A stretch of 64,000 nucleotides of DNA, taken from positions 23,201-87,200 of IMG/VR virus record IMGVR_UViG_3300025875_000590; one strand, 5' to 3'. This document shows positions 1 to 64,000 of the stretch, piece by piece. Within the stretch, counting starts at the first letter, position 1. The number at the start of each line of letters is the position of its first letter. Below the pieces are notes generated by a model, which saw only the letters and a program-made list of their open reading frames with translations, was not told where the DNA came from and made no database searches. The DNA comes from a virus (taxonomy: Duplodnaviria > Caudoviricetes). The translations under genes were made by a program, and so were the position numbers.

Positions 1-452
1 AGGCGGGCCACGTCCTCCTTCTTGGCGTGCTGGGTGAGCCGGAGGTACACCCACGCGCACAGCTCGTCCAGCGGCCAGTCCAGAGGGTCGCCGAGGCCGC
101 GGTCGCGGGCGACGGCGATGAAGGTGTCCCAGCCGTCGACCATGGTGGCCACGAGCATGGTGGCCTGCCACCACGGGCGGCCGGCGGCCTGGGCGAGCAG
201 GCCCTGCCCGATGCGGTGCAGCAGCGCCGGGTCGAGGTCCTCGTCGGGGTCCAGGGCGGTGTCCCACAGCTCTTCGGCGACGTCGTCGGGGAGGACCTCG
301 AGCAGCAGGTCGGCGGGCTCGTCGGAGAGGATGGCCAGCACCCACACCCGGGCGGGGTGCTCGGCCACCTCGAACAGCCGGCCGTCGATGCGGAAGGCAA
401 GCGGGTCCAGCCGCCGGTCGCGCCAGGCGTCCAGACGCGACCGGGCGCTCAC
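1..452 (-). CDS. Tail-region protein following the tail assembly chaperone (runs off window)
   Basis: Hand translation from GTG 452 (MSARSRLDAWRDRRLDPLAFRIDGRLFEVAEHPARVW...), GTGA overlap with upstream gene, open to window edge. Confidence 0.65.
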   Translation of the reverse strand, partial: MSARSRLDAWRDRRLDPLAFRIDGRLFEVAEHPARVWVLAILSDEPADLLLEVLPDDVAEELWDTALDPDEDLDPALLHRIGQGLLAQAAGRPWWQATMLVATMVDGWDTFIAVARDRGLGDPLDWPLDELCAWVYLRLTQHAKKEDVAR

Positions 453-808
453 CGGCGCTTGGTGGCCTTTTGCTGCTTGTCGTAGTCCTTCCAGAAGTCG
501 CCCATGTCGGCCAGGATCGGCATGACGTCCTCGGCGTCGAGGTCGTCGTCGTTGTTGAGCAGGCGGCCCTCGAGGATGGTGCGGCCGGGCTCGAGGACGC
601 AGTCGCCGAGGAAGTCCAGGGCGAGCTTGATCTTCATGCCGGCGGGGGTGCGGCGGGACTGCACCGGGGCGAGCTGGGCGATGAGGGCGTCCTTGGGCTT
701 GCTCGCCGACATCTCGACGCCGTCGACCTTGAAGCGGAACAGCGGAGGCGCGTCGGCGCCCTCGGCGGTCTCCTTCGGCTTGGTGGTGTAGTCGCGGATC
801 TCGGTCAC
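449..808 (-). CDS. Putative tail assembly chaperone
   Basis: AGGAG RBS before GTG 808; position after gp10-like gene in tail operon; acidic 119 aa. Confidence 0.6.
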   Translation of the reverse strand: MTEIRDYTTKPKETAEGADAPPLFRFKVDGVEMSASKPKDALIAQLAPVQSRRTPAGMKIKLALDFLGDCVLEPGRTILEGRLLNNDDDLDAEDVMPILADMGDFWKDYDKQQKATKRR

Positions 809-887
809 GAGGGGCTCCTGGTGCAGGGGGCGAGCAGACGACAGCACGGTAACCGTCTGCGGTCGGCTGGTGACGCCAGGCACGCGG

Positions 888-1415
888 TCAGGCGTTGCGG
901 TCGATGACCTCCTCCATCGCGCGGCGGAGGAACGGCCGGCCCGCTCGAGCGGCGATCTTCCGGCTGTGGGAGGGCACGGTGTGCGCCAGCTGCGTGCGGG
1001 CGGCCACCTGGTGGGCGGGCACCTCGGTGGCCGGGACGGTGTAGGACTTCCGGCCGTTGCGCGCCGGGACGGTGTACGCCTTCCGGGTGTGCGCCTTGAC
1101 GGTGTGCGCCTTGATCGTCCGGGCCTTCACCTGGTGCGCGGCCACCGTCACGGTCTGCGCGCGCACGCCCTCGTGGACGTCGGCGGCGTACTCGACCGCG
1201 GTGCCGACCCGGCCGATGACGAGCATGCCCTCGGTGCGGGTCGCCGAGGTGATGGAGGACCGGAGGTTGCCGGTGTCGACCGGGCAGTAGAGCACCGCGC
1301 GGTTGCGGATGAGCCGGATCTGCCGGATGACGTGCCGGGTGACGAGCCCGCCAGGCCCGACCAGCTGGGTGCGGAGTTCGGACTGGTTGATGACCAGCCG
1401 GGCCGTGGCGGGCAC
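888..1415 (-). CDS. HK97 gp10-like tail/neck protein
   Basis: CPVDTGNLRSSI and VEYAADVHEG motifs. Confidence 0.8.
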   Translation of the reverse strand: MPATARLVINQSELRTQLVGPGGLVTRHVIRQIRLIRNRAVLYCPVDTGNLRSSITSATRTEGMLVIGRVGTAVEYAADVHEGVRAQTVTVAAHQVKARTIKAHTVKAHTRKAYTVPARNGRKSYTVPATEVPAHQVAARTQLAHTVPSHSRKIAARAGRPFLRRAMEEVIDRNA

Positions 1416-1419
1416 GGGG

Positions 1420-1686
1420 CTACTCCCCCGCTGGCGTGCCGGCGCGGTGCTCGGCGAGGCGCTGCTGCTTCTCCGCCACCGAGCCCGACGTCGACAGCTC
1501 GGCGGCGGCCAGCGCGGCGTCGAGGGCGGCGCCGCGCAGGAGGGCCTCCTCGCCGTCGTCGTCCAGGACGGTGAGCCGACCGTCGGCGATCGCCGCGTCG
1601 ATCAGCGGCGTGCGGGTGAGGGTCACCTCCTCGTACCAGGCCAGCCCGAGCATCGGGGTCTCGGTGCGCACACGAACATCGGCCAT
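1420..1686 (-). CDS. Small virion-operon protein with C-terminal SAP/HeH-like helical module
   Basis: C-terminus LRGAALDAALAAAELSTSGSVAEKQQRL; position in operon. Confidence 0.55.
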   Translation of the reverse strand: MADVRVRTETPMLGLAWYEEVTLTRTPLIDAAIADGRLTVLDDDGEEALLRGAALDAALAAAELSTSGSVAEKQQRLAEHRAGTPAGE

Positions 1687-1700
1687 GACAGCTCCCTACC

Positions 1701-2267
1701 TCAGACGACCTGGATGGTCGCGGTGATGAGCCCGCCGACGATGCCGCCGTCGGGCCCGAACGGGGTCCAGGCGCCCAGGACGATGCCCACGTCCTCGGCG
1801 TCGGCGTACCGGTTGAGCAGCGCCTCGCGGAGGATCGCGGCGTCGATCGCGGCGACGCTGGCGGCCTCCTCCTCGTCCTCGATCGGGGGGAGGACCGCGG
1901 CGCCGTCGACCTCGGTGACCACCGGCGCTGGCCGGGCGACGCCGACCTCGATGGTGACCGCCCAGGACATCTCGGCGGTGTGCGGCCCGGCGTCGGGCTC
2001 GGGGAAGTTGCGGGAGGGCACCGAGGACACGAGGCGGACCCACAGCTGCCCGCAGCAGTCCTCGGTGAGGTCGGTGCCGCGGTCCAGGGGCACCTCGACG
2101 CCGGCGACGGCCAGGACGGCGCAGGGGGTCAGGACGGAGGGGTCCCGCTCGTGGAGCTCGTCGTACAGCTCGACGGTGACGTCGCGGACCCGGCCGAGCA
2201 GGGGGGCGGCGACGCCGTCGAGGACGGTGCCGTCGGGGAGGATGCACAGCCCGCTGGCGTAGGTCAC
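1701..2267 (-). CDS. Putative tail terminator/neck protein
   Basis: DCCGQLWVRL and TIEVGVARP motifs typical of actinophage neck genes; GTGA overlap with adaptor gene. Confidence 0.55.
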   Translation of the reverse strand: MTYASGLCILPDGTVLDGVAAPLLGRVRDVTVELYDELHERDPSVLTPCAVLAVAGVEVPLDRGTDLTEDCCGQLWVRLVSSVPSRNFPEPDAGPHTAEMSWAVTIEVGVARPAPVVTEVDGAAVLPPIEDEEEAASVAAIDAAILREALLNRYADAEDVGIVLGAWTPFGPDGGIVGGLITATIQVV

Positions 2268-3019
2268 TGGTCGGCCCCGGAGTGGACGGCGAGCACGCGG
2301 TGCTTGGCCGACAGCGGCGACCAGAGGGTGGCGGCCTGCCGGAGCCCGTCGGGGTTGACCGACCGCAGCCACGCGTCAACGGTGGGGACGCCGGTGTAGC
2401 CGGCGTCGGCGAGGTCCTCGGGGGCGGCGAGGGTGACGCTGGTGCCCTGCCGGGTGACGTCGCGGGCGCGGGAAGGCAGCTTGCACTTCGGGTCGACCAC
2501 CATGCCGCGGCCGAGCTCGAGGGCGTAGCGGGCGGCGGCGAGGTTGCCGTCGACGCCGGGGGCGAGGCCGCGGGTGTAGCGGACGGCCCAGCGGGGCGCG
2601 TAGACGTCCTGGGCGACGGGCCAGCCGCCGCCGTCGGTGCGCACGAGGGTCCCGTCGGGGTCCAGGTGCCAGGCGGCGCTGTCGAGGACCTCGGCGTCGA
2701 CCACGACCTGGGAGACGCCGACGACGGGCCCGGGGAGCCGGAACGCGCGGGCGGGGGTGCAGTAGCCGTTGACGGCCATCCCGGCGCCGGCGTTGAGGGC
2801 GACGCCGGTGCGGTGCCCGGTGTACCAGCCGACGCGCGGCGGGGGGATGAACGGGGCGAGGGTGACGTCGAGGGTGCCGAACCGTCGCCCGGACAGCGCC
2901 CACAGGGTGCGGACGGCGACCTGCTGGGCGACCGCCTGCACGTCGGTGGGGAGGGCGTCCCAGCTGGCCCCGAGCAGGTCGGTGCTCGGGGCCCAGCCGG
3001 TGGGCAGCGGGTCGGTCAC
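2264..3019 (-). CDS. Head-to-tail adaptor
   Basis: LWALSGRRFG, CKLPSRARDVTRQG and TGVPTVDAWLRSVNP motifs. Confidence 0.75.
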   Translation of the reverse strand: MTDPLPTGWAPSTDLLGASWDALPTDVQAVAQQVAVRTLWALSGRRFGTLDVTLAPFIPPPRVGWYTGHRTGVALNAGAGMAVNGYCTPARAFRLPGPVVGVSQVVVDAEVLDSAAWHLDPDGTLVRTDGGGWPVAQDVYAPRWAVRYTRGLAPGVDGNLAAARYALELGRGMVVDPKCKLPSRARDVTRQGTSVTLAAPEDLADAGYTGVPTVDAWLRSVNPDGLRQAATLWSPLSAKHRVLAVHSGADQ

Positions 3020-3021
3020 GC

Positions 3022-3708
3022 TCAGGCGGCGAGCGCGACCAGGCCGGAGCTCTCGGCCGGCGGTGCGATCGTGGTCATCTGCAGGTGGAAGTGGTCCTTC
3101 GGCCCGATCGCGGTGAGCAGCGGCCCCGGGGTGATGGTGCCCTCGGCCGCGGAGATGTCGACCACGTCGTAGGGGCCGACGTCCCAGCCCGGGTTCTCCC
3201 GGGTGGAGGACGACAGGCTGAAGCTCGCGGCGCCGTTCTCCAGGCTGAAGTCGCCGATGGTGCCGCCCTTCAGGAACGGCAGCAGGGTGTAGCCGTAGGC
3301 CTTGGCGCCGGCGCACGCCTGCCCGGCGAGGTCGGTCCACACCTCCAGGCCCCACCCGCCGAGCACGGGGACGCCGCCGGAGAGCCGGAAGCCGACGGCG
3401 GCGGCCTTGGCGTCGAGGACGACCTGCTGCCCGGTCATGAGGGAGAACAGGTCGGGGTCGACGCGGGTGAACGCGATCTCGGCGTTCATGCCGGTGAGGG
3501 TGGAGTCGCCGGGCTCGTTGAAGTCGGACTCGCCGGAGCCGTTGGTGACCGCGATCGCGTCGGCGGTCTCGTACTGCGGGGACAGGCCGACGGAGACGAA
3601 GCCCTTGCTGACGCGGGTGGACTTCGGGCCGATGACGGGGACGCCGCACTCGTCCAGCCGGGTGATGCGCATCCGCCGACCGCGGATGGGAGCGAAGGTA
3701 CCGTTCAC
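3022..3708 (-). CDS. Major tail protein
   Basis: IRGRRMRITRLDECG, FTRVDPDLFSLMTG, YTLLPFLKGG motifs; GGAG RBS. Confidence 0.8.
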   Translation of the reverse strand: MNGTFAPIRGRRMRITRLDECGVPVIGPKSTRVSKGFVSVGLSPQYETADAIAVTNGSGESDFNEPGDSTLTGMNAEIAFTRVDPDLFSLMTGQQVVLDAKAAAVGFRLSGGVPVLGGWGLEVWTDLAGQACAGAKAYGYTLLPFLKGGTIGDFSLENGAASFSLSSSTRENPGWDVGPYDVVDISAAEGTITPGPLLTAIGPKDHFHLQMTTIAPPAESSGLVALAA

Positions 3709-3778
3709 GGGGGACTCCAGGGTGCTCGGGAGCGAGCGCCCGGCCCTCGGCCAGCGGCGGTACAACTTCGGAGGGTAG
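3706..3778 (-). promoter_or_regulatory. Late promoter/leader motif, copy A (before major tail gene)
   Basis: TACCCT (-10-like) then GCCGCTGGCCGAGGGCCGGGCG; near-identical to 8589-8665. Confidence 0.7.
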
Positions 3779-3811
3779 TGCAGCGCGCAGGCCCGAGCGG
3801 GGTCGGCGCGC

Positions 3812-4177
3812 TTACCGCCCGGGGGGCATCGGGTGGTCGGTGCCCGGGAACAGCCCGCAGTACCACTCCTCCTCCGCCGGCGGGGGCGCGGCGGGCTGGC
3901 CGTAGGCGGCGAGCGGGTAGCAGTTGTTGCGGACCTTCTCGTGCAGCCACACGGCGCCGTAGGCGGTGAGCGGGGTCCACAGCAGCAGCCCGAGCGCGAG
4001 GACGACGGCGACGTGGTGCAGCCGGGAGCGGGTGCGCTCGGCGGTCTCGTCGGCGGCGCCGGCCAGCCGCTCGGAGAGGTCCCGGGCGACGCGGTCGGCC
4101 TGCAGGGAGTCCGAGAGGCGGGTGACCCGGTCGTGCAGGTCGCGGACGCCCTCGTGCAGCTGCTCGTCCTCCATCAC
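3812..4177 (-). CDS. Membrane protein (coiled coil, one TM, Cys-containing C-terminus)
   Basis: Hydrophobic run VAVVLALGLLLWTPLTAYGAVWL; overlap-coupled to upstream gene. Confidence 0.65.
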   Translation of the reverse strand: MMEDEQLHEGVRDLHDRVTRLSDSLQADRVARDLSERLAGAADETAERTRSRLHHVAVVLALGLLLWTPLTAYGAVWLHEKVRNNCYPLAAYGQPAAPPPAEEEWYCGLFPGTDHPMPPGR

Positions 4178-4743
4178 CGCTCGCTGGGCCCGTCGAGGCG
4201 GGTGATCTGCGCGGTGATGCTGCGCGGCGCCGAGCCCGGGGAGGCCCCGGGGTACTGGCCCCCGCCGGGGTTGGCGGCCTCGTCGTTGGCCTCGAGCTCG
4301 CCGGGGTACCAGCGGTGCAGGAGCAGCCCGGCGTGGCTCTCGCGGATGGAGCGGATCTCCTGGGCGGGCACGAGGACCATCCCGCGGGGAACGCGGCTGC
4401 CCAGCTGGTAGTCCTGCACCAGCTGCCGGAGGTCGGCGACCTGCCGCTCGAGGGACCGGTTCTCCGTCTTCAGCTCGCTGATGTCCGCGGCGTGGTCGGC
4501 CTTCAGGGAGACGATCGACTGCTCGTAGGAGTCGACGCGGCTCTTCGTCTCCTCCAGCAGCAGCCGAAGCACGTCGAAATTGCCCTGCGCCGAGACGGCG
4601 GAGACCTCCTTGCGCTCGGCGGCGGCGACGTCAGCGCGCTCACCGCGGCGGGTGACGTACCGCTGCACGAGGTCCTTCACGCCGAGCCCGGCGAGGATGG
4701 CCCCGATGGCGGTGAGGACGGCGACGATCGTGTCGCCGTTCAC
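4174..4743 (-). CDS. N-terminal TM plus coiled-coil protein (lysis-cassette-like)
   Basis: IVAVLTAIGAILAGLGV anchor, then heptad region. Confidence 0.65.
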   Translation of the reverse strand: MNGDTIVAVLTAIGAILAGLGVKDLVQRYVTRRGERADVAAAERKEVSAVSAQGNFDVLRLLLEETKSRVDSYEQSIVSLKADHAADISELKTENRSLERQVADLRQLVQDYQLGSRVPRGMVLVPAQEIRSIRESHAGLLLHRWYPGELEANDEAANPGGGQYPGASPGSAPRSITAQITRLDGPSER

Positions 4744-5180
4744 GCGCGGCCCTCGGGGATGCCGCGGGCCTGCTGGTTGCGCCAGGACAGCAGGTGGACG
4801 TAGGCGTAGACGTGGGTGCCGACGGCGAGGATGCCGTAGGCGAAGGTGCCGATCTGGGCGGGGTTGACCCAGGTCAGGTCGAAGGCGAACAGCCCCCACA
4901 CGGCCATGCCCGCCAGGGTCGCGCCGTCGATGATCCGGTCGAGGGCGTCGCTGTAGAGCCCGGCGCCCATGATCAGGCCCAGGACGATGAGCACGGACCC
5001 GAAGATGACGTCGTTGGCGAAGTGCTGGCGGGCGAGGCTGTAGCCGGCGCTGGAGGCGAGGGTGTCGTCGGGGAACAGCAGCCGGATCCCGACGACCACG
5101 TTGAACACGGCTGAGAGCACGCGGGCGGAAGTGACCCGGGCGACGACATGCGTCGGGTCGGTGTGCGGCAGGAGAGGCAT
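4740..5180 (-). CDS. Four-TM membrane protein, holin candidate
   Basis: 146 aa, four hydrophobic segments, basic C-terminus. Confidence 0.55.
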   Translation of the reverse strand: MPLLPHTDPTHVVARVTSARVLSAVFNVVVGIRLLFPDDTLASSAGYSLARQHFANDVIFGSVLIVLGLIMGAGLYSDALDRIIDGATLAGMAVWGLFAFDLTWVNPAQIGTFAYGILAVGTHVYAYVHLLSWRNQQARGIPEGRA

Positions 5181-5203
5181 CGGTGGGCTCCGGTAGGGCG
5201 ATA

Positions 5204-5236
5204 CCGCCCCGCCCTCCGGTCAGGAGGGCGGGGCGG
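5204..5236. terminator. GC-rich hairpin terminator
   Basis: 14-bp perfect stem CCGCCCCGCCCTCC, GGTCA loop, after 5254-5913. Confidence 0.7.
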
Positions 5237-5253
5237 CGGGGGTCGCGGGGGTG

Positions 5254-5913
5254 TTACTGGCCGGCGCGGTGCGCGGCGAGCCGCGCCTGCTTCTCCGCGA
5301 CGCGGCCGGTGGTGGGCAGGTCGGCGGCGCGGAGGGCCTCGTCCAGGGCCTCCCCGCGCAGCTCACCCTCGGCCGGGCCGCCCTCGTCGTCGCCACCGGT
5401 GTCGCTGGCGTCGGCGACGTTCTCGGTGCTCTTCGCCGGCAGCCCGGTGTGCGTCTCGTCGCGGGCGCCCTCGACCGGCGGCGGAGCGCCGTGGGTCAAG
5501 CCACCGTTCGGGTCGCCCTCGGGGACGTCGGCCTCGGTGGGAGCACCGGTGGTGGCCTCGGCGTGCGTGGCGCCACCGTTGGGCTCGTTGCCGGAGCGGG
5601 CCAGCGTGCCGCCGGTCTGCGCACCGTCGGTCGCGGCGACACCCCCGGCCGGGGCGGGGCGCTGCGCGACGGCGGTGTTGGTCAGGGCCTTGCCCTCGAC
5701 GGCCATCGCGTCGACGGCGCCGTCCTCGGAGGCGCTGAAGCCGGCGGCCTCGGCGACGTCGGCGGGGACGCGGAAGCCCTGGAACACGGTGGCCACCGAC
5801 TCCTGGGCCACGCCCAGCTCGTCACAGGCGGCGAGCAGCCGACGGGAGATGTCGGGCTGGTCGGCGTTGGCGGCGAAGATCTCCACGAACTGCGGGGCGG
5901 TGGGCTCGGACAC
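5254..5913 (-). CDS. Head-associated protein with acidic linker and SAP/HeH-like C-terminus
   Basis: Follows capsid genes; C-terminus LRGEALDEALRAADLPTTGRVAEKQARL. Confidence 0.6.
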   Translation of the reverse strand: MSEPTAPQFVEIFAANADQPDISRRLLAACDELGVAQESVATVFQGFRVPADVAEAAGFSASEDGAVDAMAVEGKALTNTAVAQRPAPAGGVAATDGAQTGGTLARSGNEPNGGATHAEATTGAPTEADVPEGDPNGGLTHGAPPPVEGARDETHTGLPAKSTENVADASDTGGDDEGGPAEGELRGEALDEALRAADLPTTGRVAEKQARLAAHRAGQ

Positions 5914-5931
5914 GGCGAGGTGCTCCTTCGG

Positions 5932-6771
5932 TCAGACGGTGAGGTTGGTGGGGACGGCGAACAGCCCGCACGAGTGCCCGACGGACACGATGCGGGCGGT
6001 CTGGACCGTGGCGACGTTGGTCTCCCGGTCCAGTGCTTCGGGGAGGTTCTCGGGCAGGTCGATGACCGGGCGGCGGACGACCTTGACGGGGCCGGTGGCG
6101 TAGAGCCAGGTGGCCTCGTCGGTGCGCGCCTGCCCGGCCGGGCCGGAGCCGGGGTAGCCGGTGCCGAACACGACCTTCGTGCCGAGCTCGGTGCGCATGA
6201 CCCCGCGGGACTCCGACACCATGCCCTTGAGCGCCTGGAAGGCGACGCGGGGAGCGTGGATGACGCCGACCGCGCCGGTCATGAGGCCGATGGCCTCCTC
6301 GAGGCGGCCGAAGGCGAGCGCGGGCTTCAGCGCCGTGCCGGAGAGGATCTCCGCGGCCACGGCGTCGGCGAGGTGCACGGGCTCCACGTCGGGGGCCCAG
6401 CCCTCCCCGGTCCAGTAGGCGCGCTCGACGGCGGTCTGCTCCGTGAGGCGCATACGGGCCCGGGCGACGTCGCGCAGGTGCTCGAGCGTGGTGCCGACCG
6501 GCTTGCACTGGATGCCGGCGTGCACGCCGATCGGGGGTGCCTGCACCAGGTCGGTGCCTTCGGGCACGTCGCCGGGGAACGGGCTCTCGACGGCGCAGCC
6601 GACGGGGAACGTGGTGGCCAGCCCGCAGATCGTGGGCTCCCACTGGACGCCGTTGGCCGCGTGCGGGTCGGGGTCGTCCACCGGGACGGCGACGGAGTAC
6701 AGCCCGTAGCCGGCCGTCTCGGGAGTCGGCTCCTCGACGTCGTGCAGCGGGGCGGGGGCGGGAGAGGTCAC
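5932..6771 (-). CDS. Major capsid pentamer protein (cluster-B-mycobacteriophage-like)
   Basis: 279 aa directly after hexamer gene; NGVQWEP and EQTAVERAYW motifs. Confidence 0.6.
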   Translation of the reverse strand: MTSPAPAPLHDVEEPTPETAGYGLYSVAVPVDDPDPHAANGVQWEPTICGLATTFPVGCAVESPFPGDVPEGTDLVQAPPIGVHAGIQCKPVGTTLEHLRDVARARMRLTEQTAVERAYWTGEGWAPDVEPVHLADAVAAEILSGTALKPALAFGRLEEAIGLMTGAVGVIHAPRVAFQALKGMVSESRGVMRTELGTKVVFGTGYPGSGPAGQARTDEATWLYATGPVKVVRRPVIDLPENLPEALDRETNVATVQTARIVSVGHSCGLFAVPTNLTV

Positions 6772-6793
6772 GGGCGGTGCGCTCCTTCCATGA

Positions 6794-6830
6794 CCGAGGC
6801 CGGGGAGCCGGTCAGGCTCCCCGGCCTCGG
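6794..6830. terminator. Hairpin after major capsid gene
   Basis: 16-bp perfect stem CCGAGGCCGGGGAGCC, GGTCA loop. Confidence 0.75.
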
Positions 6831-6848
6831 GTCAGGCGCTGCGAGGGG

Positions 6849-8591
6849 TCAGACGGCAGCGACGGCGACGGGGCCACCGGCGGCGTGGTAGCCGTCCGCG
6901 GCGATCGGCACCGTGTAGACGCGGGAGTCGTGGCCGAGCTTGGCGACCATGAGCGACTCCTCGGTGAACAGGCCGGTGAACTCGTTCTCCACCAGGCCCG
7001 CGGAGTCGTAGACGGTGTCGAGGCTGATGACGTCGCCCATGCCGCGCACGAACGTGCCTGCGGGGTAGACCAGGAACGACACCGTCGCCGGCCAGCGCAC
7101 CGCGGCCACGGCCTGGCCGAGACCGGAGTCCTGCCAGTCGTAGACGAACTGCGGGGCGATGCTGCGCTGGGTGAACCAGGCCCGCACCTCGGCGTCGGTG
7201 ACGTCGAGCAGGTCCTTGCCGCCCTGCCACGCCAGGTCGGCCCGGATCGCGGGGAGGATCCACGCCGGGAACACCGCCTCGAGGGTGGTGCCCCGCGCCA
7301 TGCGGTGCCGGTACTTGACGTCCTCGACGGCCAGCTCGATGGCGTTGAGCACCGGGGTGCCCGCGCCACCGCCGGGGTTCGGAAGCGTCGGCACGGCGGT
7401 CGACAGCGCCACCATGCGGGCGATGCTCTTCGCCGAGATGCGGTGCGCGTGCGCGGCGAGAGCACCGCGGACGACGCGGGCCGTCAGCTCCGGGTAGGCC
7501 CGGTTCTGCAGGATGCCGGCGGTGATGCACAGCCCCTCGACGCCGGCGCGCTCCTCGGTGAACGGGGGGCACTCGACGCGGTAGCAGGGCTTGGTCTGCC
7601 CGGCGGTGGCCTGCGCCTCGGTCTGGGAGAAGCCGGTGCCGTCGAAGATCGACCGGAAGTCCGGGCCCGGGGTGAACCGGATGCCGCCGCGGGCGACGTT
7701 GATCTCCGGCATGTCGACCAGCGCGTCGGCGGCCTCGTACTCGGCGAGGTCGTACAGCGTCTCCGACGGAGCGCACCAGCCACCGGCGGCGACCAGGGAG
7801 CCGCCGGGGAGGCGGTGCTGGTCGATCGCGTAGTCCAGGACCTGGGAGTCGGTGACGGCCTTCGCCACGAGGCCGGGCTCGAAGTCCTTGCGGAGCAGCG
7901 CGATCCCGTGCTTCATGCGGGTCCGGGTGCCCGGCAGCGGAGACGAGGGGTACTCCGACGCCCGGCGAGACACGGCCTCGGCGACCTCACCGAAGGAGCC
8001 GAACGCGGTGCCAGCCTGGTGGCCGGGCGCCTCGGGGGCGGCGATGAGGCTGATCGGGCGGCGCTCGGGGGCGGCCGGCTTCTTCGACAGGCGGGCCAGG
8101 TCGGCGGCCCGGGCACGCGGCCGGGTCGTGGCGCCACCGGTTGCGGCGGCGGCGGTGACGGCGTCGGGCTCCAGCTCGGAGGCGTCGTCGGGGACCTCGA
8201 CGTCGTCCGCGGCGGTGCCGTCGGCGTCGGCGTCTGCGTCGTCTGCGGCGGAGGAGCCGGGCAGCTCGATGCCGGCGAGCTTGTTGCGCCGCTCGGCGTT
8301 GGCGCTGGCGCGACCGTCCTGCTCGACGCGGACGGCGGTGACGACCTCGGCGAGCCGCTCGGCCTCGGCGACGTCGTCGTCGGTGAGGAACTCCTTGTCG
8401 CGGATGGCCTCGAACGCGGATACGGCGCGGGTCTCGAGGTCGGCGAGCGCCTCGTCGTCCGCGGCGTCGACGCCGCCTTCGGGCAGGTCGATCGCGGGGG
8501 CGGTGTCCTCGGTGGGGACGAACACGGTGAAGCGGGCGCCGGCGCGGTCCCGCCCGATGCGCGGGACGGCGGGGAGGGTGGACAGGCTCAC
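6849..8591 (-). CDS. Major capsid (hexamer) protein with acidic N-terminal scaffold-like region
   Basis: SLVAAGGWCAPSETLYDL and RGGIRFTPGPDF motifs; GGAG RBS before GTG 8591. Confidence 0.85.
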   Translation of the reverse strand: MSLSTLPAVPRIGRDRAGARFTVFVPTEDTAPAIDLPEGGVDAADDEALADLETRAVSAFEAIRDKEFLTDDDVAEAERLAEVVTAVRVEQDGRASANAERRNKLAGIELPGSSAADDADADADGTAADDVEVPDDASELEPDAVTAAAATGGATTRPRARAADLARLSKKPAAPERRPISLIAAPEAPGHQAGTAFGSFGEVAEAVSRRASEYPSSPLPGTRTRMKHGIALLRKDFEPGLVAKAVTDSQVLDYAIDQHRLPGGSLVAAGGWCAPSETLYDLAEYEAADALVDMPEINVARGGIRFTPGPDFRSIFDGTGFSQTEAQATAGQTKPCYRVECPPFTEERAGVEGLCITAGILQNRAYPELTARVVRGALAAHAHRISAKSIARMVALSTAVPTLPNPGGGAGTPVLNAIELAVEDVKYRHRMARGTTLEAVFPAWILPAIRADLAWQGGKDLLDVTDAEVRAWFTQRSIAPQFVYDWQDSGLGQAVAAVRWPATVSFLVYPAGTFVRGMGDVISLDTVYDSAGLVENEFTGLFTEESLMVAKLGHDSRVYTVPIAADGYHAAGGPVAVAAV

Positions 8592-8665
8592 GGGGGAGGC
8601 TCCTGGGGTGCTCGGAAGTGCGAGCGCCCGGCCCTCGGCCAGCGGCGGTACAACCCGGAGGGTAG
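8589..8665 (-). promoter_or_regulatory. Late promoter/leader motif, copy B (before capsid gene)
   Basis: Near-identical to 3706-3778. Confidence 0.7.
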
Positions 8666-8710
8666 CCGACCAGCACGGCCGCTGCCTACGAGCCGTCACC
8701 GACACGCTGA

Positions 8711-8743
8711 CGGCCCCGGGCAGCACAACGCCCCCCGGGGCCG
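8711..8743. terminator. Hairpin terminator after parB
   Basis: 10-bp stem CGGCCCCGGG/CCCGGGGCCG. Confidence 0.55.
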
Positions 8744-8844
8744 CTCCAGCTGATCCAGCTAGCAGCAGCGCCCGAGGGGCGAAGGCCCGATCAGTCCGGC
8801 CGCGGCGTCCTAGGAACGCGGCCAGCAGGTGAGACGGTAGTCGA

Positions 8845-9333
8845 TCAGCCGCCCAGGGGCCGGCCGGTGGGCAGCTGGCCGCTGCTCACCGGTGCCCAGG
8901 ACCGGCCGCCGTTGTACGCCTCCTCCCGCCGCTCGACCTCGCGGCGGACGGCGCGGGCCACGAACTCCGCCCAGGACCGCTCCCCCTCGGCGACGTGGCT
9001 GTTGAGGTAGGCGGCGCGGGCGCGGGCGAGCCCGGCCGGGGTGTCGTAGAAGGTGCTCTTCTCCCGGGCACCCGCCGAGGACGTCGCCACCGCGGGGGCC
9101 GCGGCGGTGACGGTGCCCGGCGCGATCGGGGACTCGACCAGCCCCCGGTCGACCGCGGCGTCGATGGCGCGCTGCTGCGGAGAGGCCACCGGTGCCGGCT
9201 CGGGCAGCCCGGCCGGGCGGGCGCCGAGCACGGGGTCGACCGCCGGGGCCTTCGGCAGCGGGGCCGAGCCGGTGAGCTCGGCGAGGGTGGCCGCGTCGGG
9301 GGCACCAGTGCGCCGCCGGGACGGTGGGGGCAT
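8845..9333 (-). CDS. parB: Centromere-binding protein, small actinobacterial ParB C-terminal type
   Basis: RAAYLNSHVAEGERSWAEFVARAVRREVERREEAYNGG after disordered N-terminus; coupled to parA. Confidence 0.7.
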   Translation of the reverse strand: MPPPSRRRTGAPDAATLAELTGSAPLPKAPAVDPVLGARPAGLPEPAPVASPQQRAIDAAVDRGLVESPIAPGTVTAAAPAVATSSAGAREKSTFYDTPAGLARARAAYLNSHVAEGERSWAEFVARAVRREVERREEAYNGGRSWAPVSSGQLPTGRPLGG

Positions 9334-10118
9334 CAGGACAGCTCCAGGGAGAGGTGGTGGGCCACGGACCGCAGTGCGGCCCGGACGTCGCCGGCGGCGG
9401 CGGTGCGGTACTCGGTGAGCGGAGCAGCAGCCGAAGCGGCCTGCTTCACCACCTCCCGCTCGGGGACCTGCTGCTCGAGCACCAGCTCGGCGTAGTCCTC
9501 GACCAGCGCGGCCAGCCACTCGTCGCCGTCCCGCCGGCCGGGCCGCCACCGGTTGACCACGATCCCCGCCAGCGCGAGGTCGGGGTTGTAGCTGCGGCGG
9601 ACGGTGGCCACGGTGCGGGTCATGAGCGCGAGCCCGGCGACGCTGTCGGCGCCGGGCTCGGTGACCAGCAGCGCCCGGTCGGCGGCGACGAGGGCGTTGA
9701 CGGTGAGCAGCCCGACCGAGGGCGGGCAGTCGATGAGCACGACGTCCCAGCCGCGGTCCTCCCCGTCGAGGGCGGTGCGCAGCCGCCGCTCCCACCCGAG
9801 GTCCCGCTCCATCTCCCGGGCCGACAGCCCGGCTTCGGAGGGCAGCACGCCGAGGGACTCCGGCCACAGCGCGCCGGCCTCGGTGACGGCGTGCGCGGCA
9901 CCGTTGGGCATGACGTCGCCGGTGGCGGGCTGCACGGCCAGCACGTCGGCCAGCGTCAGGTCCGGGGCGTGCACGCCGAGCCGGGCGGAGGCGTTGCCCT
10001 GCGGGTCGGCGTCGATGACGAGCACGCGGAACCCGGCTGCGGCGAGTTCGCCGGCGAGGTTGACGGTGACGGTGGTCTTGCCGACGCCGCCCTTCTGGTT
10101 GCAGACGGCGATGACCAT
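9333..10118 (-). CDS. parA: ParA partition ATPase
   Basis: NQKGGVGKTT deviant Walker A, IDADPQGN, IDCPPS. Confidence 0.95.
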   Translation of the reverse strand: MVIAVCNQKGGVGKTTVTVNLAGELAAAGFRVLVIDADPQGNASARLGVHAPDLTLADVLAVQPATGDVMPNGAAHAVTEAGALWPESLGVLPSEAGLSAREMERDLGWERRLRTALDGEDRGWDVVLIDCPPSVGLLTVNALVAADRALLVTEPGADSVAGLALMTRTVATVRRSYNPDLALAGIVVNRWRPGRRDGDEWLAALVEDYAELVLEQQVPEREVVKQAASAAAPLTEYRTAAAGDVRAALRSVAHHLSLELS

Positions 10119-10224
10119 CGCCCGGTCGCCGATCACCGACGACCCCGCCGTCGGTCGAGCCACACCAGCAGGAACGCGAAGTTCCCGCCGGCGACGACCA
10201 GGAGCACGTTCTCCAGCCACTCGC

Positions 10225-10623: not shown

Positions 10624-10886
10624 GCCGCAGCCACGGGCGAGGGCCAGACGACGCGCTCAGACCGCTCGATGACGACCGTGCTGGCCGCGGGGATCTCCGC
10701 GACCCGCTCCATCGGCCCGCTCATGTGGTCGTACCCCCCGACAGCAGGGGCCCCGGCGCGGAGCAGCGCGGCCCGCTTCTCCGCGGCCTTCTTCGACTGG
10801 TAGTGCCAGGCCCGGGTCTCGGTGGGCCGCCCCGGAGACGTCCAGGTGGCGGTGACGCGGAACAGGTACTTCGGCCGGTACCTCAC
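10620..10886 (-). CDS. Hypothetical protein
   Basis: Overlap-coupled on both sides. Confidence 0.55.
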   Translation of the reverse strand: MRYRPKYLFRVTATWTSPGRPTETRAWHYQSKKAAEKRAALLRAGAPAVGGYDHMSGPMERVAEIPAASTVVIERSERVVWPSPVAAA

Positions 10887-53319: not shown

Positions 53320-54900
53320 TCAGCGACCGATGCCCGGACGTCGCCCGAGACCACCTCCGCCACCGCCGCCGCCGATGCGGAGACCTGCGGCGCCGCCGAG
53401 CTGCGCCTCCCCGACGAGGGGGTTGATGACGAGGGCGAGGGCGGCCTGGGTGAGCTGGTCGACCATGTCGTCGTGCTTGGCGTTCGGGAACCCGGCGGCC
53501 TGCTCGATGAGCTCCTCCACCACGGGCAGGATCTCCGCGGCCGGAAGGACGACGTTGTGGGCGACCACGAGGGGTGCAGCGGCGTTCGCGCGGGCCACCT
53601 TCCCGCCCTCGGGCTCGACGGGTGTGAGGCCGACGACCTCGTTGCGGAGGGAGTCCATGACGGCGGTGCCGTTGGCCTTGTCCTCGATGAGCTTGGTGAT
53701 GGCCTGCGGCCAGCGGGCCGACATGGCGCGGACGGCGTCCACGGTCTCGGTGAAGCTCATGCGCCGGTTGACCAGGTCGAGCAGGTACAGCTGGCCGCCG
53801 CGCTTGAGCCACACACCGCCGGCGACGTAGTCGGAGGTGGAGGTCTTCTTGAAGGCCATGTCCCAGGACTGCGCGAGCTGGTCGCCGGGCTGCAGCGGCA
53901 CCCACATCGAGCCGTCGGCGCGGGCGATGGCGATCGGGGCGTCGTAGCGGGCCCAGCCGCCCCGCTTGAACAGGGTGCCCTCCGGGGGGGAGGGCTGCCC
54001 CTGGTAGAGGGCGGTCCAGGTGCTGATCGAGCGGCGCTTGATCTGCTCCCACTGCGCGCGGGTGCGCCGACGCGCCGACCGCAGAAATTCCCCGGGCTGC
54101 CGGCCGAGGGGGTCGGTCTCGCCCTTCTCGGGGTCGTGGTCGGCCTGGGCGGGGATGTTGATGACGGTCCAGCCCTCGCCCTCCCCGCGCTCGTCCTGGG
54201 CGATGAGCCGACCAGCAAGATCGTCCTCGTGCCAGCGGGTCATGATCAGGATGACGGGGGCGCCCGCGGCGAGACGGGAGGCCGCGGTGTCGGTCCACCA
54301 CTTCCAGGCGTCCTCGCGGTAGGTCTCGGAGTCCGCGGTCTTGCGGTCCTTGACCGGGTCATCGATGACGAGCAGATCGACGGGACGGCCGGTGAGGGCG
54401 CCGCCGATGCCGGTGGTGAACACGCCGCCGTCGTGGTCCTCCAGCTGCCACTCGTTCTGCGCGGCGACGTCGCGGCGGACGCGGAGCCCGAGCCGGGGGT
54501 GCTGCCGGATGTCGTCCCGGATGGCGCGGCCCCAGCGGCGGGCGACGTCGGACTCGTAGGAGACGATCGCGGCGCGGGTGGCGGGGTTGCGGCGCAGCGC
54601 CCACAGCACGCCGCGGCGGACGGCGCGCTGGCTCTTGCCCTCCTGGGGAGGCATGGAGATGATCAGCCGGCCGTCGGGGGTGTCCAGGCACTTGACGATC
54701 GCGGCGTCGATGAGCCGCAGGGCCTCGGTCTGGACGGTGCGGTGGTCGAGGTCGACGGCGAGCGCGCCGGGGGTCGGCCACTTGTCGGAGGGCCGGGCGC
54801 GGGCGCGGGCGTCGTCGTACTCGAGGAGCTTGAGAGCTTCGGCTTCGAGCTCGGCGTCGGTCATCTCGGCGACCGGGCGCGGGGGCAGGACGGCGGTCAA
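53320..54900 (-). CDS. terL: Terminase large subunit
   Basis: SMPPQEGKS, LLVIDDPVK, IMTRWHEDDLAG, SWDMAFK, HDDMVD. Confidence 0.95.
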   Translation of the reverse strand: MTAVLPPRPVAEMTDAELEAEALKLLEYDDARARARPSDKWPTPGALAVDLDHRTVQTEALRLIDAAIVKCLDTPDGRLIISMPPQEGKSQRAVRRGVLWALRRNPATRAAIVSYESDVARRWGRAIRDDIRQHPRLGLRVRRDVAAQNEWQLEDHDGGVFTTGIGGALTGRPVDLLVIDDPVKDRKTADSETYREDAWKWWTDTAASRLAAGAPVILIMTRWHEDDLAGRLIAQDERGEGEGWTVINIPAQADHDPEKGETDPLGRQPGEFLRSARRRTRAQWEQIKRRSISTWTALYQGQPSPPEGTLFKRGGWARYDAPIAIARADGSMWVPLQPGDQLAQSWDMAFKKTSTSDYVAGGVWLKRGGQLYLLDLVNRRMSFTETVDAVRAMSARWPQAITKLIEDKANGTAVMDSLRNEVVGLTPVEPEGGKVARANAAAPLVVAHNVVLPAAEILPVVEELIEQAAGFPNAKHDDMVDQLTQAALALVINPLVGEAQLGGAAGLRIGGGGGGGGLGRRPGIGR

Positions 54901-59082: not shown

Positions 59083-59309
59083 CGGGCACCCTCCGGGGCG
59101 TAGGAGCGGACGCGGGCAGCAGCAGCAGCGCGGACGACGTCGGCAGCGCGGGTGCAGGCGGGGCACAGGTCACCGCCGTCAGATCGGCGGGTCCAGCCCT
59201 CCCCGGCGGCGACACCGCGGGCCCGCACGTTGGAGACGTCGACCGGCCCGTACTCGTCGGGGCAGCCGGGGCCGTCGCAGATGACCTGCATGACCTGGAC
59301 GGCGCTCAC
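59079..59309 (-). CDS. Zinc-ribbon protein
   Basis: ICDGPGC..GW..DLCPAC. Confidence 0.6.
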   Translation of the reverse strand: MSAVQVMQVICDGPGCPDEYGPVDVSNVRARGVAAGEGWTRRSDGGDLCPACTRAADVVRAAAAARVRSYAPEGAR

Positions 59310-59851
59310 AAGGCACCACCCAGGGGGATCGCCTCGGGGTCGGCGGCCAGCCGGCGGGAGATCTCCGCGGACACCTCGGCGAGCCGGGCGCGGGCCTCGT
59401 CGGGGGACAGGTGGGTGAGCTCGATGGGGGCACCGCCCTCGCCGGTGACGGCGACGTGGTCGCCCTGGCCGAGGGCCTGCCGCTGGACCTTCGCCGACAC
59501 CTCCAGCCAGTAGCCGATGTCCCGGGCGCTCATGGTGGCCACGTCGAGGGAGGCGAGGGCGCGGACGAGCCGGTCCTGCATGGCGTTGGCGATGCGCAGG
59601 TGCCGCTTCCCGACCTCGGCGCGGGAGGCGAGCTGCTGGCGGCGCCACAGCCGGTCCTGCTCGACGTCCCACGCTTCGACGCGGAGGACCCAGGCGTCGC
59701 GGGCGGACCACCGCTCGACCAGGGTGGTGGACTTGCCCAACGTGCGCGCCACCTTCGCCAAGCTGCGGTCGGTGCCGGCGTCGCGGTAGAGCACGAACGC
59801 CTCGAAGGCCTTGGCGGATTCGCCGGTGAGGCGCTCCCAGGGCTGTGCCAC
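59306..59851 (-). CDS. terS: Terminase small subunit
   Basis: PWERLTGESAKAFEAFVLYRD..RSLAKVA..RWS..W..R..AWD; C-terminal VTGEGGAPI. Confidence 0.8.
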   Translation of the reverse strand: MAQPWERLTGESAKAFEAFVLYRDAGTDRSLAKVARTLGKSTTLVERWSARDAWVLRVEAWDVEQDRLWRRQQLASRAEVGKRHLRIANAMQDRLVRALASLDVATMSARDIGYWLEVSAKVQRQALGQGDHVAVTGEGGAPIELTHLSPDEARARLAEVSAEISRRLAADPEAIPLGGAL

Positions 59852-62762: not shown

Positions 62763-62965
62763 GGGGTGGCTCCAGGGTGGATGGGGCACGCGCGGGCGGG
62801 CCGGGGCGGGAGGGCGAGGCAGGTGGCGTCGTGGTGGGCGAGCAGGTGGCAGGGGCCGGTGGCCGCGGGCAGCCCGCACACGGGCCGGGGGCGGGGGCGG
62901 AGCAGCCCGGTGGCGGGGCCGCTGCGGGCGGGGAAACGAGAGAGGGGCACGGGGGGCTCCCGGGG

Positions 62966-63379
62966 TCAGGCCGCTCGGCTGGCGGCGCGGGCTGCGGTGT
63001 GCGCGGCGGTGCACGGGGGGCAGGCGGGATCGTCGGCGGTGCGGTGCTGGCGGTAGCCGCGCTCGGTGCCGTGCTCGCGGGGCTCCCGCCCGGACAGCAG
63101 GGGCGGGTGTCCGACGGTGGGCACGGGGCCCTCGAGGGACCAGGCGAGCAGGGACCGCACGGTGCGGTCGGGGTCGACCATGCCGGCGAGGATGACGGCG
63201 AGGGCGTCGACGCGGCCCCCGGGGGTGGCGGCGAGCAGCGCTTGGACGACGTCGGGGCCCTCGTCGCGGACGGCGGCCACGAGCTGCGCGGCGTGCGGGA
63301 CCAGCTCCCCGGCGAGGTCGAGGATCGCGGCCCGCTCGGGGGGAAGATCGTCGGCGGGGACGGGGACGGTGGTGAGCAT
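62966..63379 (-). CDS. Hypothetical protein with HGT..GY..H..C..C motif
   Basis: HGTERGYRQH..CPPC; start-associated motif upstream. Confidence 0.7.
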   Translation of the reverse strand: MLTTVPVPADDLPPERAAILDLAGELVPHAAQLVAAVRDEGPDVVQALLAATPGGRVDALAVILAGMVDPDRTVRSLLAWSLEGPVPTVGHPPLLSGREPREHGTERGYRQHRTADDPACPPCTAAHTAARAASRAA

Positions 63380-63384
63380 GGTCA

Positions 63385-63397
63385 GCTCCTCAGCTGG
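63385..63397 (-). promoter_or_regulatory. Start-associated motif
   Basis: Exact CCAGCTGAGGAGC. Confidence 0.8.
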
Positions 63398-63408
63398 TCG
63401 GTGGAAGG

Positions 63409-63630
63409 TCATCGGAGGCGGGGAACCGGGGGGTGCTCCCGGCGGGCGGCGCGGAGGGCACCGTCCTTGCGGGTGTAGCCCTGCCCGGGGGTGCCGACGA
63501 CCTGCCCGTTGCCGGCCTTGACGCGGTACCGCCACAGCCCGCCGCCGTCGGGGTAGATCTCGACGCGGCGGGGCTGGCCGCCGTCGGGTCCGGGGGTCGG
63601 GTAGACGACGGGCTTGCGGCCGGCGCTCAC
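63409..63630 (-). CDS. DUF1508 (YegP-like) protein
   Basis: EIYPDGGGLWRYRVKAGNGQVVG..GYTRKDGA. Confidence 0.75.
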   Translation of the reverse strand: MSAGRKPVVYPTPGPDGGQPRRVEIYPDGGGLWRYRVKAGNGQVVGTPGQGYTRKDGALRAARREHPPVPRLR

Positions 63631-63917
63631 GACGGCGTGCCCGGGGCCGGGTCGCCGGGAGCGGCGTGGCGGGACTGGTAGGCGGCAGTGGTGGTGAGCA
63701 ACTGCTCGGCGATGCGGGCCACGCCCTCCGGCGGCAGAACGAGGGTGGCATGGGAGCTCTCGCCGGTGGCGAGGATGCCGTGCGCGGTCACGACGATCGC
63801 GTCGCTGCCGCCGGCGTCGGTGAGGACGGCGGCAGCGGCCACGGTCATGTGGGTGACGACGATCGCCGAGTCGGGGAGCAGGTCGCCGGGCTGGGGAGTG
63901 CGGGTGGGCTCGGACAT
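63627..63917 (-). CDS. Hypothetical protein
   Basis: 96 aa, GGAGG RBS. Confidence 0.6.
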   Translation of the reverse strand: MSEPTRTPQPGDLLPDSAIVVTHMTVAAAAVLTDAGGSDAIVVTAHGILATGESSHATLVLPPEGVARIAEQLLTTTAAYQSRHAAPGDPAPGTPS

Positions 63918-64000
63918 CAGGGGGCCTCCTGGTGGTGGTGGTCGGACAGGATGGTGCGGGCACGCTGCAGGCGGGCCCAGGCGGCGACGTCACCGCCGGC

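Follow-up and report, generated by a model that had tools for sequence, protein, structure and literature searches.

A plasmid-type conjugation system within the head operon of a tailed-phage lineage: candidate conjugative plasmid prophages

The stretch of DNA analysed here (64,000 nucleotides, hereafter the window) is the final 64 kb, positions 23201-87200, of the 87,200-bp virus record IMGVR_UViG_3300025875_000590, which we call G000. Coordinates are window coordinates and features lie on the minus strand, unless 'genome' or plus is stated. A preliminary description of the window had pictured a tailed phage that also encodes a complete-looking conjugation machine and a partition system. We found that the genes are arranged, in order of transcription, as terS, terL, portal, MuF, a 36-kb block, the major capsid protein (MCP) gene, and the neck and tail genes. 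The block comprises about 17 kb of small genes, mobC, four open reading frames (ORFs), a relaxase gene, a reverse-strand helix-turn-helix (HTH) gene, an M23 hydrolase gene, a type IV secretion system (T4SS) operon, a type IV coupling protein (T4CP) gene and a DUF4913 gene, followed by three small genes, parA, parB and then MCP. Identities to G001 refer to a 94.6-kb relative, IMGVR_UViG_3300025875_000621. The virion genes are as follows.

59306-59851, minus strand: terS (phrog_6299, E 4.5e-24; 62% identity to G001 h149)
53320-54900, minus strand: terL, T4-like Terminase_6 type (PF03237, Terminase_6N; PF17289, 6C; 68% identity to G001)
48038-49630, minus strand: probable portal (weak PF04860 match; between terL and MuF; 59% identity to G001)
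44764-47694, minus strand: MuF-like head morphogenesis protein, 976 aa, final head gene ahead of the inserted region (PF04233)
6849-8591, minus strand: MCP, 580 aa (NF033847, E 2.4e-176)
5932-6771, minus strand: phrog_779 protein, function not known (PHROG match)
3022-3765, minus strand: major tail protein (PHROG match)
2264-3019, minus strand: head-tail adaptor (PHROG match)
888-1415, minus strand: Neck1 (PHROG match)
1-808, minus strand: probable tail chaperones, in the head-completion/neck/tail-tube operon (1-6771)

Homologues of the probable portal adjoin MuF in 36-49 relatives. The late operon runs past the window, with most of the tail genes at genome 11.6-23 kb, and PHROG matches beyond the window include a 1274-aa tape measure protein, Dit, minor tail proteins, a fibre-like protein, an endolysin-like protein and RecT. 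No tail sheath gene and no holin were found in PHROG and profile scans of G000. Terminase, portal, HK97-fold MCP, non-contractile tail and lysis genes are thus all predicted, as in a siphovirus of the Caudoviricetes. The virion set given in the preliminary description stands for terS, terL, MuF, MCP and the neck and tail genes, which have profile matches, and for the portal as a probable assignment, with most tail genes lying outside the window. On the other hand, only the MCP could be upheld of its two capsid genes, the protein at 5932-6771 belonging to phrog_779, and its prohead protease was not confirmed. The endolysin-like gene (465 aa, genome 15686-17083) is located amid the tail genes, and no other protein is as well conserved between the genomes G000 and G001 (77%). 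Its product may be a lysin associated with the tail rather than a lysis endolysin.

The conjugation and partition genes of the block are listed next.

25590-25870, minus strand: candidate origin of transfer (oriT) region, a leader with a variant of the start-associated sequence (SAS) described below and GC-rich hairpins, upstream of mobC
25058-25393, minus strand: MobC relaxosome accessory protein (PF05713)
23842-25061, minus strand: four small ORFs in the mobC-relaxase interval (gene call; likewise in G001 and in the relatives L224 and L226)
22310-23845, minus strand: MOBP-type relaxase (PF03432; 53-55% identity to Arthrobacter plasmid relaxases)
20823-21620, plus strand: HTH (XRE-like) regulator, divergent from the T4SS operon (weak HTH_31 and HTH_3 matches)
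19446-20537, minus strand: M23 peptidoglycan hydrolase with an N-terminal transmembrane (TM) segment, heading the T4SS operon (PF01551, TM prediction)
19018-19326, minus strand: 102-aa protein with two TM segments in a VirB2/VirB3-like position (TM prediction)
within 17007-19326, minus strand: 259-aa bitopic protein, DUF8175 in relatives (TM prediction)
17007-18239, minus strand: 410-aa polytopic VirB6-like protein with at least four TM segments (TM prediction)
15506-16987, minus strand: SCO6880-family T4SS protein (NF042935, E 1.4e-128)
13845-15509, minus strand: VirB4/TraC-like ATPase (weak NCBIfam VirB4 matches, below curated cut-offs)
11888-13660, minus strand: T4CP, VirD4/TraG-like (PF12696, TraG-D_C; PF02534, T4SS-DNA_transf; two N-terminal TM segments)
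11424-11903, minus strand: DUF4913 protein, the conserved final gene of actinobacterial T4SS operons (PF16259, E 1e-34)
9333-10136, minus strand: parA (AAA_31, CbiA and ParA matches)
8845-9333, minus strand: parB, centromere-binding, 162 aa (PF18064, CB_ParB_C, 44 bits against a 27-bit cut-off)

The three membrane proteins are ordered as in the operons of Micrococcales plasmids. The domains AAA_10, P-loop_TraG and DUF87 occur in ESM-Atlas neighbours of the VirB4-like ATPase, TraC and VirB4 being among their names, and the orthologue in the plasmid operons, with 45-57% identity, is the 'ATP/GTP-binding protein'. The G000 ATPase has an intact Walker A motif, GLPGLGKS, and has kept 77 of the 84 residues that are invariant in plasmids; the relaxase retains 136 of 166, Tyr and His motifs included. 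The T4CP of G000 likewise has an intact Walker A, GPRGGKTT, which conforms to the GPRxGKTT of the plasmids and of all G000-type members, that is, G000 and the relatives L224, L225 and L226. All four have intact Walker A motifs in both T4CP and VirB4, as well as intact Tyr and His motifs in the relaxase, and have kept 74-92% of the residues that are invariant in plasmids. Sequence searches of the PDB were unproductive for the VirB4-like ATPase, for the relaxase and for the portal. Judged by its genes, G000 carries the relaxase with accessory protein, P-loop T4CP and VirB4-family ATPase that would be expected of a self-transmissible element. Of the conjugation genes named in the preliminary description, mobC, relaxase, T4CP, VirB4, SCO6880, VirB6-like and M23 were recovered, whereas its pilin label for the 102-aa protein was not confirmed. 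Its remark that small genes are threaded through the mob operon holds, in that the four small ORFs separate mobC from the relaxase gene; they are specific to the lineage, since the two genes adjoin directly in plasmids. The reverse-strand HTH gene is kept in all six members of the lineage. We considered it as a regulator of the plasmid T4SS and rejected this, no homologue being present in any of nine plasmid loci.

parA and parB overlap by ATGA. By its profile matches, which bear out the earlier assignment of both genes, the pair is a type-Ib plasmid partition cassette of parA and CB_ParB. An ORF at 8886-9305 was rejected as parB, as its GC content at second codon positions (GC2) of 0.96 marks a wrong frame; the real parB, 8845-9333, lies in the other frame.

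A gene call based on GC content at third codon positions (GC3) gave about 134 genes in G000, all but two of them on the minus strand; parB, the C5 methyltransferase and an HNH endonuclease were added by hand, which makes about 136 in total. CheckV puts completeness at 96% for G000 and 91% for G001. GC content is uniform along G000 at 73-77%, indicating a high-GC actinobacterial host; the hosts are probably soil-type Actinomycetota, and the conjugation genes point to Micrococcales. The ends of the G000 contig have 8 bp in common, and when this overlap is removed an unbroken 217-aa high-GC3 ORF runs across the junction. In addition, the genes at the ends of G000 (g132 on one side, g002 and g003 on the other) are contiguous in G001, whose own ends fall between homologues of the neighbouring G000 genes g123 and g124. 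The map is circular on these two grounds, and the DNA behind it could be a circular molecule or, if it came from virions, circularly permuted. No tyrosine (PF00589) or serine (PF00239) recombinase was matched in a six-frame search of G001 and of the whole 87.2-kb G000 record, so that the reported lack of an integrase in the window extends to the entire record. Searches for near-identical DNA in GenBank phages and PLSDB plasmids returned short gene-level matches only.

The junction between the conjugation genes and MCP is not peculiar to G000. G001 has 56 proteins in common with it, from both modules, at 36-77% identity (virion: terL 68%, portal 59%, MuF 57%, MCP 58%, tape measure 48%; conjugation: relaxase 57%, T4CP 53%, VirB4 55%, SCO6880 43%, M23 64%). 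The block of G001 occupies the identical slot between MuF and MCP with the T4SS operon inverted, so that mobC-relaxase-hypothetical is convergent with DUF4913-T4CP-VirB4-SCO6880, the exact layout of Micrococcales plasmids. A 17.9-kb contig from the same metagenome as G001, L131, represents a distinct member with 65-90% identity to G001. A search of a database of 5.8 billion proteins with the VirB4-like protein returned a tight group at 61-74% identity, and the loci of three of these proteins were inspected. These loci are L224, L225 and L226, which originate from the JGI samples 3300061606 and 3300061560 and SRR23458678. They show the co-directional layout of G000, from mobC through the T4SS to MCP (71-74% identity) and the tail. 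The T4SS-MCP junction is therefore common to five further members (G001, L131, L224, L225, L226) from at least three other samples, which supplies the syntenic homologues that the preliminary description had called for. The gap between MuF and MCP measures 36 kb in G000 and 46 kb in G001, against 0.5-9.7 kb (median 2.4 kb) in 66 relatives with co-oriented genes. No T4SS genes were seen near MCP in about 200 other MCP-related loci (74 viral, 47 from isolates or metagenome-assembled genomes, 78 metagenomic). In tblastn searches of 50,697 GenBank phage records, SCO6880 had no match and T4CP only a marginal one (E 2e-4, 24% coverage), to a 4.3-kb unannotated fecal contig, and viral contigs yielded no SCO6880 in a pattern search based on a single sequence. 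Taken together, the six members appear to form a lineage of siphoviruses that have no integrase and whose circular maps measure about 87-95 kb.

G001 also carries, at L080 30928-33231, two ParB_N proteins followed by a TET-associated glycosyltransferase (PF20691), which are absent from G000 and suggest a DNA hypermodification module.

Trees were needed to place the conjugation genes, because the T4CP and relaxase of G000 are about as similar to proteins of Arthrobacter, Glutamicibacter, Miniimonas and Leifsonia plasmids (52-55% identity) as to those of G001 (53-57%). T4SS trees were built with nine plasmid operons and a Streptomyces outgroup. The phage-borne proteins formed a single clade in the T4CP tree (support 99/97, and 99 with five members), in the relaxase tree (88/88) and, with three members, in the VirB4 (89/95) and SCO6880 (85/85) trees. 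In a tree of concatenated T4CP, VirB4 and SCO6880 they again formed one clade, with support of 80/100, among Micrococcales plasmid systems. The MCP tree placed the six members in one clade (support 89), sister to ordinary phages that are free of the block. Furthermore, the MCP and concatenated T4SS trees had the same topology, ((G001,L131),(G000,(L226,(L224,L225)))), with internal nodes supported at 100 throughout the T4SS tree and at 87-100 in the MCP tree. The separate phage and conjugation trees thus agree. Independent acquisition of the T4SS by the two sub-lineages was considered; it is disfavoured by the T4CP and concatenated trees, while the single-gene trees of VirB4 and SCO6880, being trichotomous, leave room for it. 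Relatives with related phage arms and no block do exist, but their MCPs are at most 60% identical and they fall outside the six-member clade, indicating that the block was acquired at the base of the lineage and not by recent insertion. Between G001 and L131 all ORFs are intact, and dN/dS is 0.27-0.66 for T4SS genes and 0.23-0.44 for virion genes; values were calculated by NG86, and only the comparison of modules and the fact that all lie below 1 are relied on, because extreme GC3 bias inflates the absolute values. These data support a single capture of the conjugation module, its source being a plasmid of Micrococcales type, at the base of the phage lineage, followed by what appears to be vertical inheritance under selection, given the congruent trees, the one T4SS clade, dN/dS below 1 and the intact motifs.

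The same evidence bears on the possibility of an artefact or a recent accident, either a chimeric assembly of phage and plasmid or an integrative and conjugative element (ICE) or plasmid that has just been inserted. The record is a metagenomic contig, and its T4CP and relaxase are as close to those of Arthrobacter and Glutamicibacter plasmids as to those of G001, both of which would suit such an origin. Against it stand the junction in six independent assemblies from at least four samples, which rules out chimerism, the congruent phage and T4SS trees, the uniform GC content, phage-type motifs on either side of the block, and the absence of an integrase and of att-type boundary genes, phage genes flanking the block at a conserved junction. 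We regard this possibility as effectively excluded. The view that G000 is one co-evolved element rather than a phage with a fresh ICE in it is strongly supported by synteny, trees, dN/dS and the lack of an integrase alike.

Short regulatory motifs link the block with the phage arms. The sequence GCTGAGGAGCTG occurs in 12 copies, all on the coding strand and 3-8 nt ahead of an ATG or GTG, with about 0.02 expected; it usually has ACCA in front, and its sites include 11385, 63394 and, with a variant prefix, 25610. A 13-nt start motif had been reported after the conjugation operon, as a variant in the mob leader and in the phage arm, and it is present at all of these places. It is also present in G001, and it resembles the start-associated sequences of cluster K mycobacteriophages. 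The SAS motif stands ahead of the first gene past the T4SS operon in all G000-type members. The start-associated sequence ACCAGCTGAGGAGCTG forms a 5-bp stem (CAGCT/AGCTG) with a GAGG loop and is common to G000, G001, L224, L225 and L226. Its sites in the window are 11385, 26562, 30272, 31228, 31567, 34024, 40907, 42548 and 63394, and elsewhere in the genome 2549, 2833, 3444, 7125 and 11156. It is restricted to small early or cargo genes, 3-8 nt ahead of their start codons, and none is found in the late structural or T4SS operon. In addition, eight 16-bp palindromes, TGTCCAG-N2-CTAGACA, were detected against 0.02 expected, all of them intergenic (window 26141, 26778, 30692, 31626, 34069 and 40951; genome 3764 and 8522). 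The one at 26141 immediately precedes, on its upstream side, the transcription unit running into mobC and the relaxase gene. They look like a putative repressor regulon controlling early genes. No such palindrome is present in G001, as expected of a heteroimmune relative. Two regions carry these and the late signals.

26141-43400, minus strand: early/cargo region of small genes, with ACCAGCTGAGGAGCTG and six of the eight operator-like palindromes
8592-8700, minus strand: TACCCT promoter-like box and structured leader directly upstream of MCP

A 35-nt core of this leader is identical upstream of MCP (8620-8654) and of the major tail protein gene (3732-3766), and the MCP leader is kept in all six members regardless of the preceding gene. 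With a promoter-like box and leader of its own, MCP would allow late head and tail expression to be independent of read-through across the block.

We propose that the lineage descended from a phage that captured a plasmid T4SS, and that it lives as a plasmid prophage which both mates and forms virions; we give this reading a probability of about 0.6. The ancestor would have taken a Micrococcales-type plasmid conjugation system, consisting of mobC, MOBP relaxase, T4CP, VirB4-like and SCO6880 proteins, VirB6-like and small membrane proteins, hydrolase and DUF4913, into the variable slot between MuF and MCP, with a type-Ib parAB cassette in addition on the G000 branch. The element would persist as a low-copy plasmid prophage segregated by parAB, its early genes silenced by a repressor on the eight palindromic operators, and would replicate from an unrecognised initiator or an RNA-primed origin. 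In mating, a relaxosome of relaxase and MobC would nick oriT near the mob leader, and T4CP and the T4SS would export one strand to a neighbour. In infection, following induction, terS and terL would package the genome of about 87 kb by the headful mechanism into capsids whose family is known to accommodate about 95 kb. With regard to what is expected of a phage-plasmid, a partition system is predicted, and an extrachromosomal state would follow from the lack of an integration module together with the circular map.

A number of observations weigh against this proposal. All six members are metagenomic contigs known from sequence alone. Bootstrap support for monophyly of the T4SS is only 80% in the concatenated tree, and the six-member VirB4 and SCO6880 trees show a trichotomy of two phage sub-clades and a plasmid clade. 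Scans of the mob leader gave GC-rich hairpins only, so that the candidate oriT was not confirmed; we know of no oriT model for this MOB family, and blastn between the mob leaders of G000 and G001 showed coding-level similarity only. Scans of about 100 proteins brought up no recognisable Rep, primase, helicase or polymerase, no convincing iterons appeared in scans for tandem and inverted repeats, and Rfam gave no RNA family. No repressor gene for the operator-like palindromes was identified in G000. parAB is present in L224 and L225 and absent from L226 and G001. The accessory set of the Micrococcales SCO6880-type T4SS comprises eight genes, for DUF6668, a small TM protein, a protein of some 250 aa, a VirB6-like protein, SCO6880, DUF4913, the hydrolase and a ParA-like ATPase; G001 has all and G000 has six: DUF6668 is absent from G000 in a six-frame search, and the ParA/MinD-like ATPase of about 480 aa, which in G001 is 479 aa long, has no homologue there. 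These two genes adjoin the hydrolase gene in the plasmids and in G001 and are missing from the G000-type members. The conjugation machine described as complete-looking is thus so with respect to relaxosome, T4CP, ATPase and channel genes, and not with respect to this pair. Lastly, dN/dS is somewhat higher for the T4SS than for virion genes, the phage-borne T4SS proteins sit on long branches, and the G001 T4CP (h091, L081 47838-49631) has a degenerate Walker A, GPRTVKSS, so that the coupling protein may be inactive in the G001 sub-lineage.

Long branches and raised dN/dS are compatible with an altered function of the T4SS, and they raise the question of whether a genuine phage might use it for something other than mating of its own genome. 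Secretion of protein or DNA that alters neighbouring cells, exclusion of plasmids or phages, and service of the relaxase as a rolling-circle initiator are possible uses. The loss of DUF6668 and of the ParA-like ATPase in G000-type members, the degenerate T4CP motif in G001 and the lineage-specific small genes between mobC and relaxase would all suit such a change, and the lack of a recognised replication initiator leaves room for the relaxase in replication. However, a full relaxosome and T4CP have been kept along with the channel genes in plasmid order, a combination specific to DNA transfer, and the catalytic motifs are intact in the G000-type members. To our knowledge there is no precedent for an exaptation of this kind in phages, and we consider it unlikely, though it carries some weight. 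The missing Rep does not disqualify a plasmid prophage, because most mycobacteriophage prophages with parABS have no repA and use an RNA-based origin (PMC7157519).

Genome size brings in a second alternative, a conjugative plasmid whose phage-derived particle module is no longer infectious, being like a gene transfer agent (GTA) or defective, for example because the genome outgrew the head. At 87-95 kb the genomes are 30-40 kb above most relatives of the same MCP family (50-60 kb), plasmid-type parAB and conjugation genes are carried, and IMG/VR classes the G000 record as 'linear', without terminal repeats. Yet a capsid capacity of about 87 kb is plausible, because the nearest cultured phages by MCP, from Microbacterium, have genomes of 95-98 kb and G002, a 94.4-kb phage with direct terminal repeats, has a related MCP. 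Furthermore, terS, terL, the endolysin and all tail genes are intact, with 41-77% identity across members and dN/dS of 0.23-0.44, and the backbone is phage-like, with its some 134 co-directional genes and start-associated motifs and with RecT, RusA, HNH, WhiB and methyltransferases encoded. GTAs usually lack terS-directed self-packaging. A non-infectious particle module is therefore, in our view, improbable.

A third alternative, a strictly lytic phage with plasmid-derived accessory genes and no plasmid-prophage state, draws on the missing integrase, on the lack of an identified repressor gene, on the absence of parAB from L226 and G001, and on the position of Hendrix-type Microbacterium phages, which are generally lytic, as the nearest cultured relatives by MCP. 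This reading is very improbable, given that three of the four G000-type members carry type-Ib parA and CB_ParB, that eight intergenic operator-like palindromes against 0.02 expected would point to repressor control of early genes, and that DNA killing its cell in a single cycle would gain little from mating.

The remaining contents of the cargo region include genes for a C5 methyltransferase, a second methyltransferase and endonuclease VII, together with one gene on the opposite strand.

36911-38179, plus strand: peptidase gene in the cargo region

The C5 cytosine DNA methyltransferase gene (31875-32978, minus strand; PF00145, E 1e-32) has a GC3 of 0.85, below that of its neighbours, and an ORF nested in it (32129-32611) has a GC3 of 0.91. 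The genome also has two HNH endonuclease genes (HNH_3 and HNH), at window 43774-44223 and at genome 9368-9754. About 0.5 kb with two small genes separates one of them from MuF, which precedes it, so that it is close to the upstream end of the inserted region.

Returning to the plasmid-prophage reading, a further step would be that these elements constitute a stable class of 'conjugative phages', in which a single plasmid-prophage replicon conjugates from lysogens and also forms virions under one shared regulatory circuit. That circuit would be made up of the start-associated motifs, the repressor operators upstream of the mob unit and the dedicated late promoter of MCP. We offer this generalisation tentatively, at slightly less than even odds. 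Phage infection and conjugation are usually treated as alternative strategies with different costs, host ranges and size limits. The lineage shows a tailed phage retaining a plasmid-type relaxase and T4SS in its head operon over the long term, under purifying selection and co-diverging with the capsid. If both routes work, the element would escape both the receptor-limited host range of the virion and the contact limit of conjugation, would blur the classification of viruses and plasmids (e.g. by geNomad), and would offer a tractable system for the choice between host-killing dispersal and non-killing mating. SCO6880, VirB4 and T4CP genes beside MCP, and the conserved MCP leader, could serve as search signatures for more such elements.

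The conjugation genes are most readily compared with those of Micrococcales plasmids, namely Glutamicibacter nicotianae plas-AT6, Arthrobacter pJ349-116, Cryobacterium pA10BH1 and Kocuria flava plasmid 1, which MOB-suite types as conjugative and MOBP. The order of a small TM protein, a protein of about 250 aa, VirB6-like, SCO6880, VirB4-like, T4CP and DUF4913 is shared at 40-57% identity, and mobC, the MOBP relaxase and the cell-wall hydrolase are also common to both. These plasmids, however, have no virion genes. In the G000-type members, unlike the plasmids, the T4SS operon is inverted and co-directional with the phage genes, the hydrolase gene heads the operon, small ORFs split mobC from the relaxase gene, and the unrelated HTH regulator is present.

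On the phage side, the nearest cultured relatives by MCP (47-50% identity), though distant ones, are the Rogerhendrixvirus-type Microbacterium phages Hendrix, Leaf, Dewdrop and Rasputia. They share the order from MCP to major tail protein to adaptor and have small-gene blocks inside the morphogenesis module, but the annotation of the 45 kb inspected lists no T4SS, relaxase or type-Ib parAB. In Hendrix (L228) about 15 kb of small genes, at 4426-19285, lie between terL and portal, and three ParB-like genes lie at the left end; phages of this group seem to tolerate insertions into the late operon unusually well. Prophages of cluster A mycobacteriophages with parABS offer a parallel for the partition genes, since there partition replaces the integration cassette, and many members have no recognisable Rep, their origin being RNA-based (Wetzel et al. 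2020, PMC7157519). Those phages differ in having no conjugation genes, genomes of about 50 kb and another type of ParB, that of G000 being type-Ib CB_ParB.

Phage and conjugation genes likewise occur on one molecule in the Escherichia coli cointegrate p1002-1 (10.1101/2025.03.14.643293) and in Streptococcus phage-ICE tandems (PMC13651849). Both are fusions or accretions of two elements that are still recognisable as separate, whereas the G000 lineage has its block embedded in the head operon, no integrase and deep co-divergence. We found no literature linking SCO6880, DUF4913 or DUF6668 systems to phages. According to a 2025 review no phage-plasmid is known to be conjugative, and a 2025 preprint describes T4SS domains as only sporadic in phage-plasmids. 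MCPs related to that of G000 (34-36% identity) are encoded on Streptomyces plasmids of about 100 kb. Seven PLSDB plasmids (H25-H31; Streptomyces, Micromonospora and Rhodococcus; 58-191 kb) encode MCPs with 34-44% identity and are non-mobilizable by MOB-suite; they are probably phage-plasmids and possibly pZL12-like.

The closest true precedent is the Streptomyces plasmid-phage pZL12/phiZL12, the one actinobacterial plasmid-phage with a transfer locus that has been studied by experiment. pZL12 was reportedly described by Zhong et al. in 2010 (J Bacteriol 192:3747). In later literature it is presented as an actinobacterial autonomous plasmid and tailed phage of about 90 kb with a conjugal transfer locus (PMC7157519, PMC3583192). 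Like G000, it combines phage and plasmid features with a conjugation locus. Transfer of pZL12 reportedly depends on the unrelated, Streptomyces-specific system of a major tra gene (TraB/FtsK-like, acting on double-stranded DNA) and two adjacent genes, whereas the G000 lineage encodes a relaxase, MobC, T4CP and a VirB4-type T4SS, as in single-strand conjugation. Furthermore, pZL12 is given as a singleton (PMC7157519), whereas the G000 lineage comprises six co-diverging members and is also set apart by the position of its conjugation module inside the head operon.

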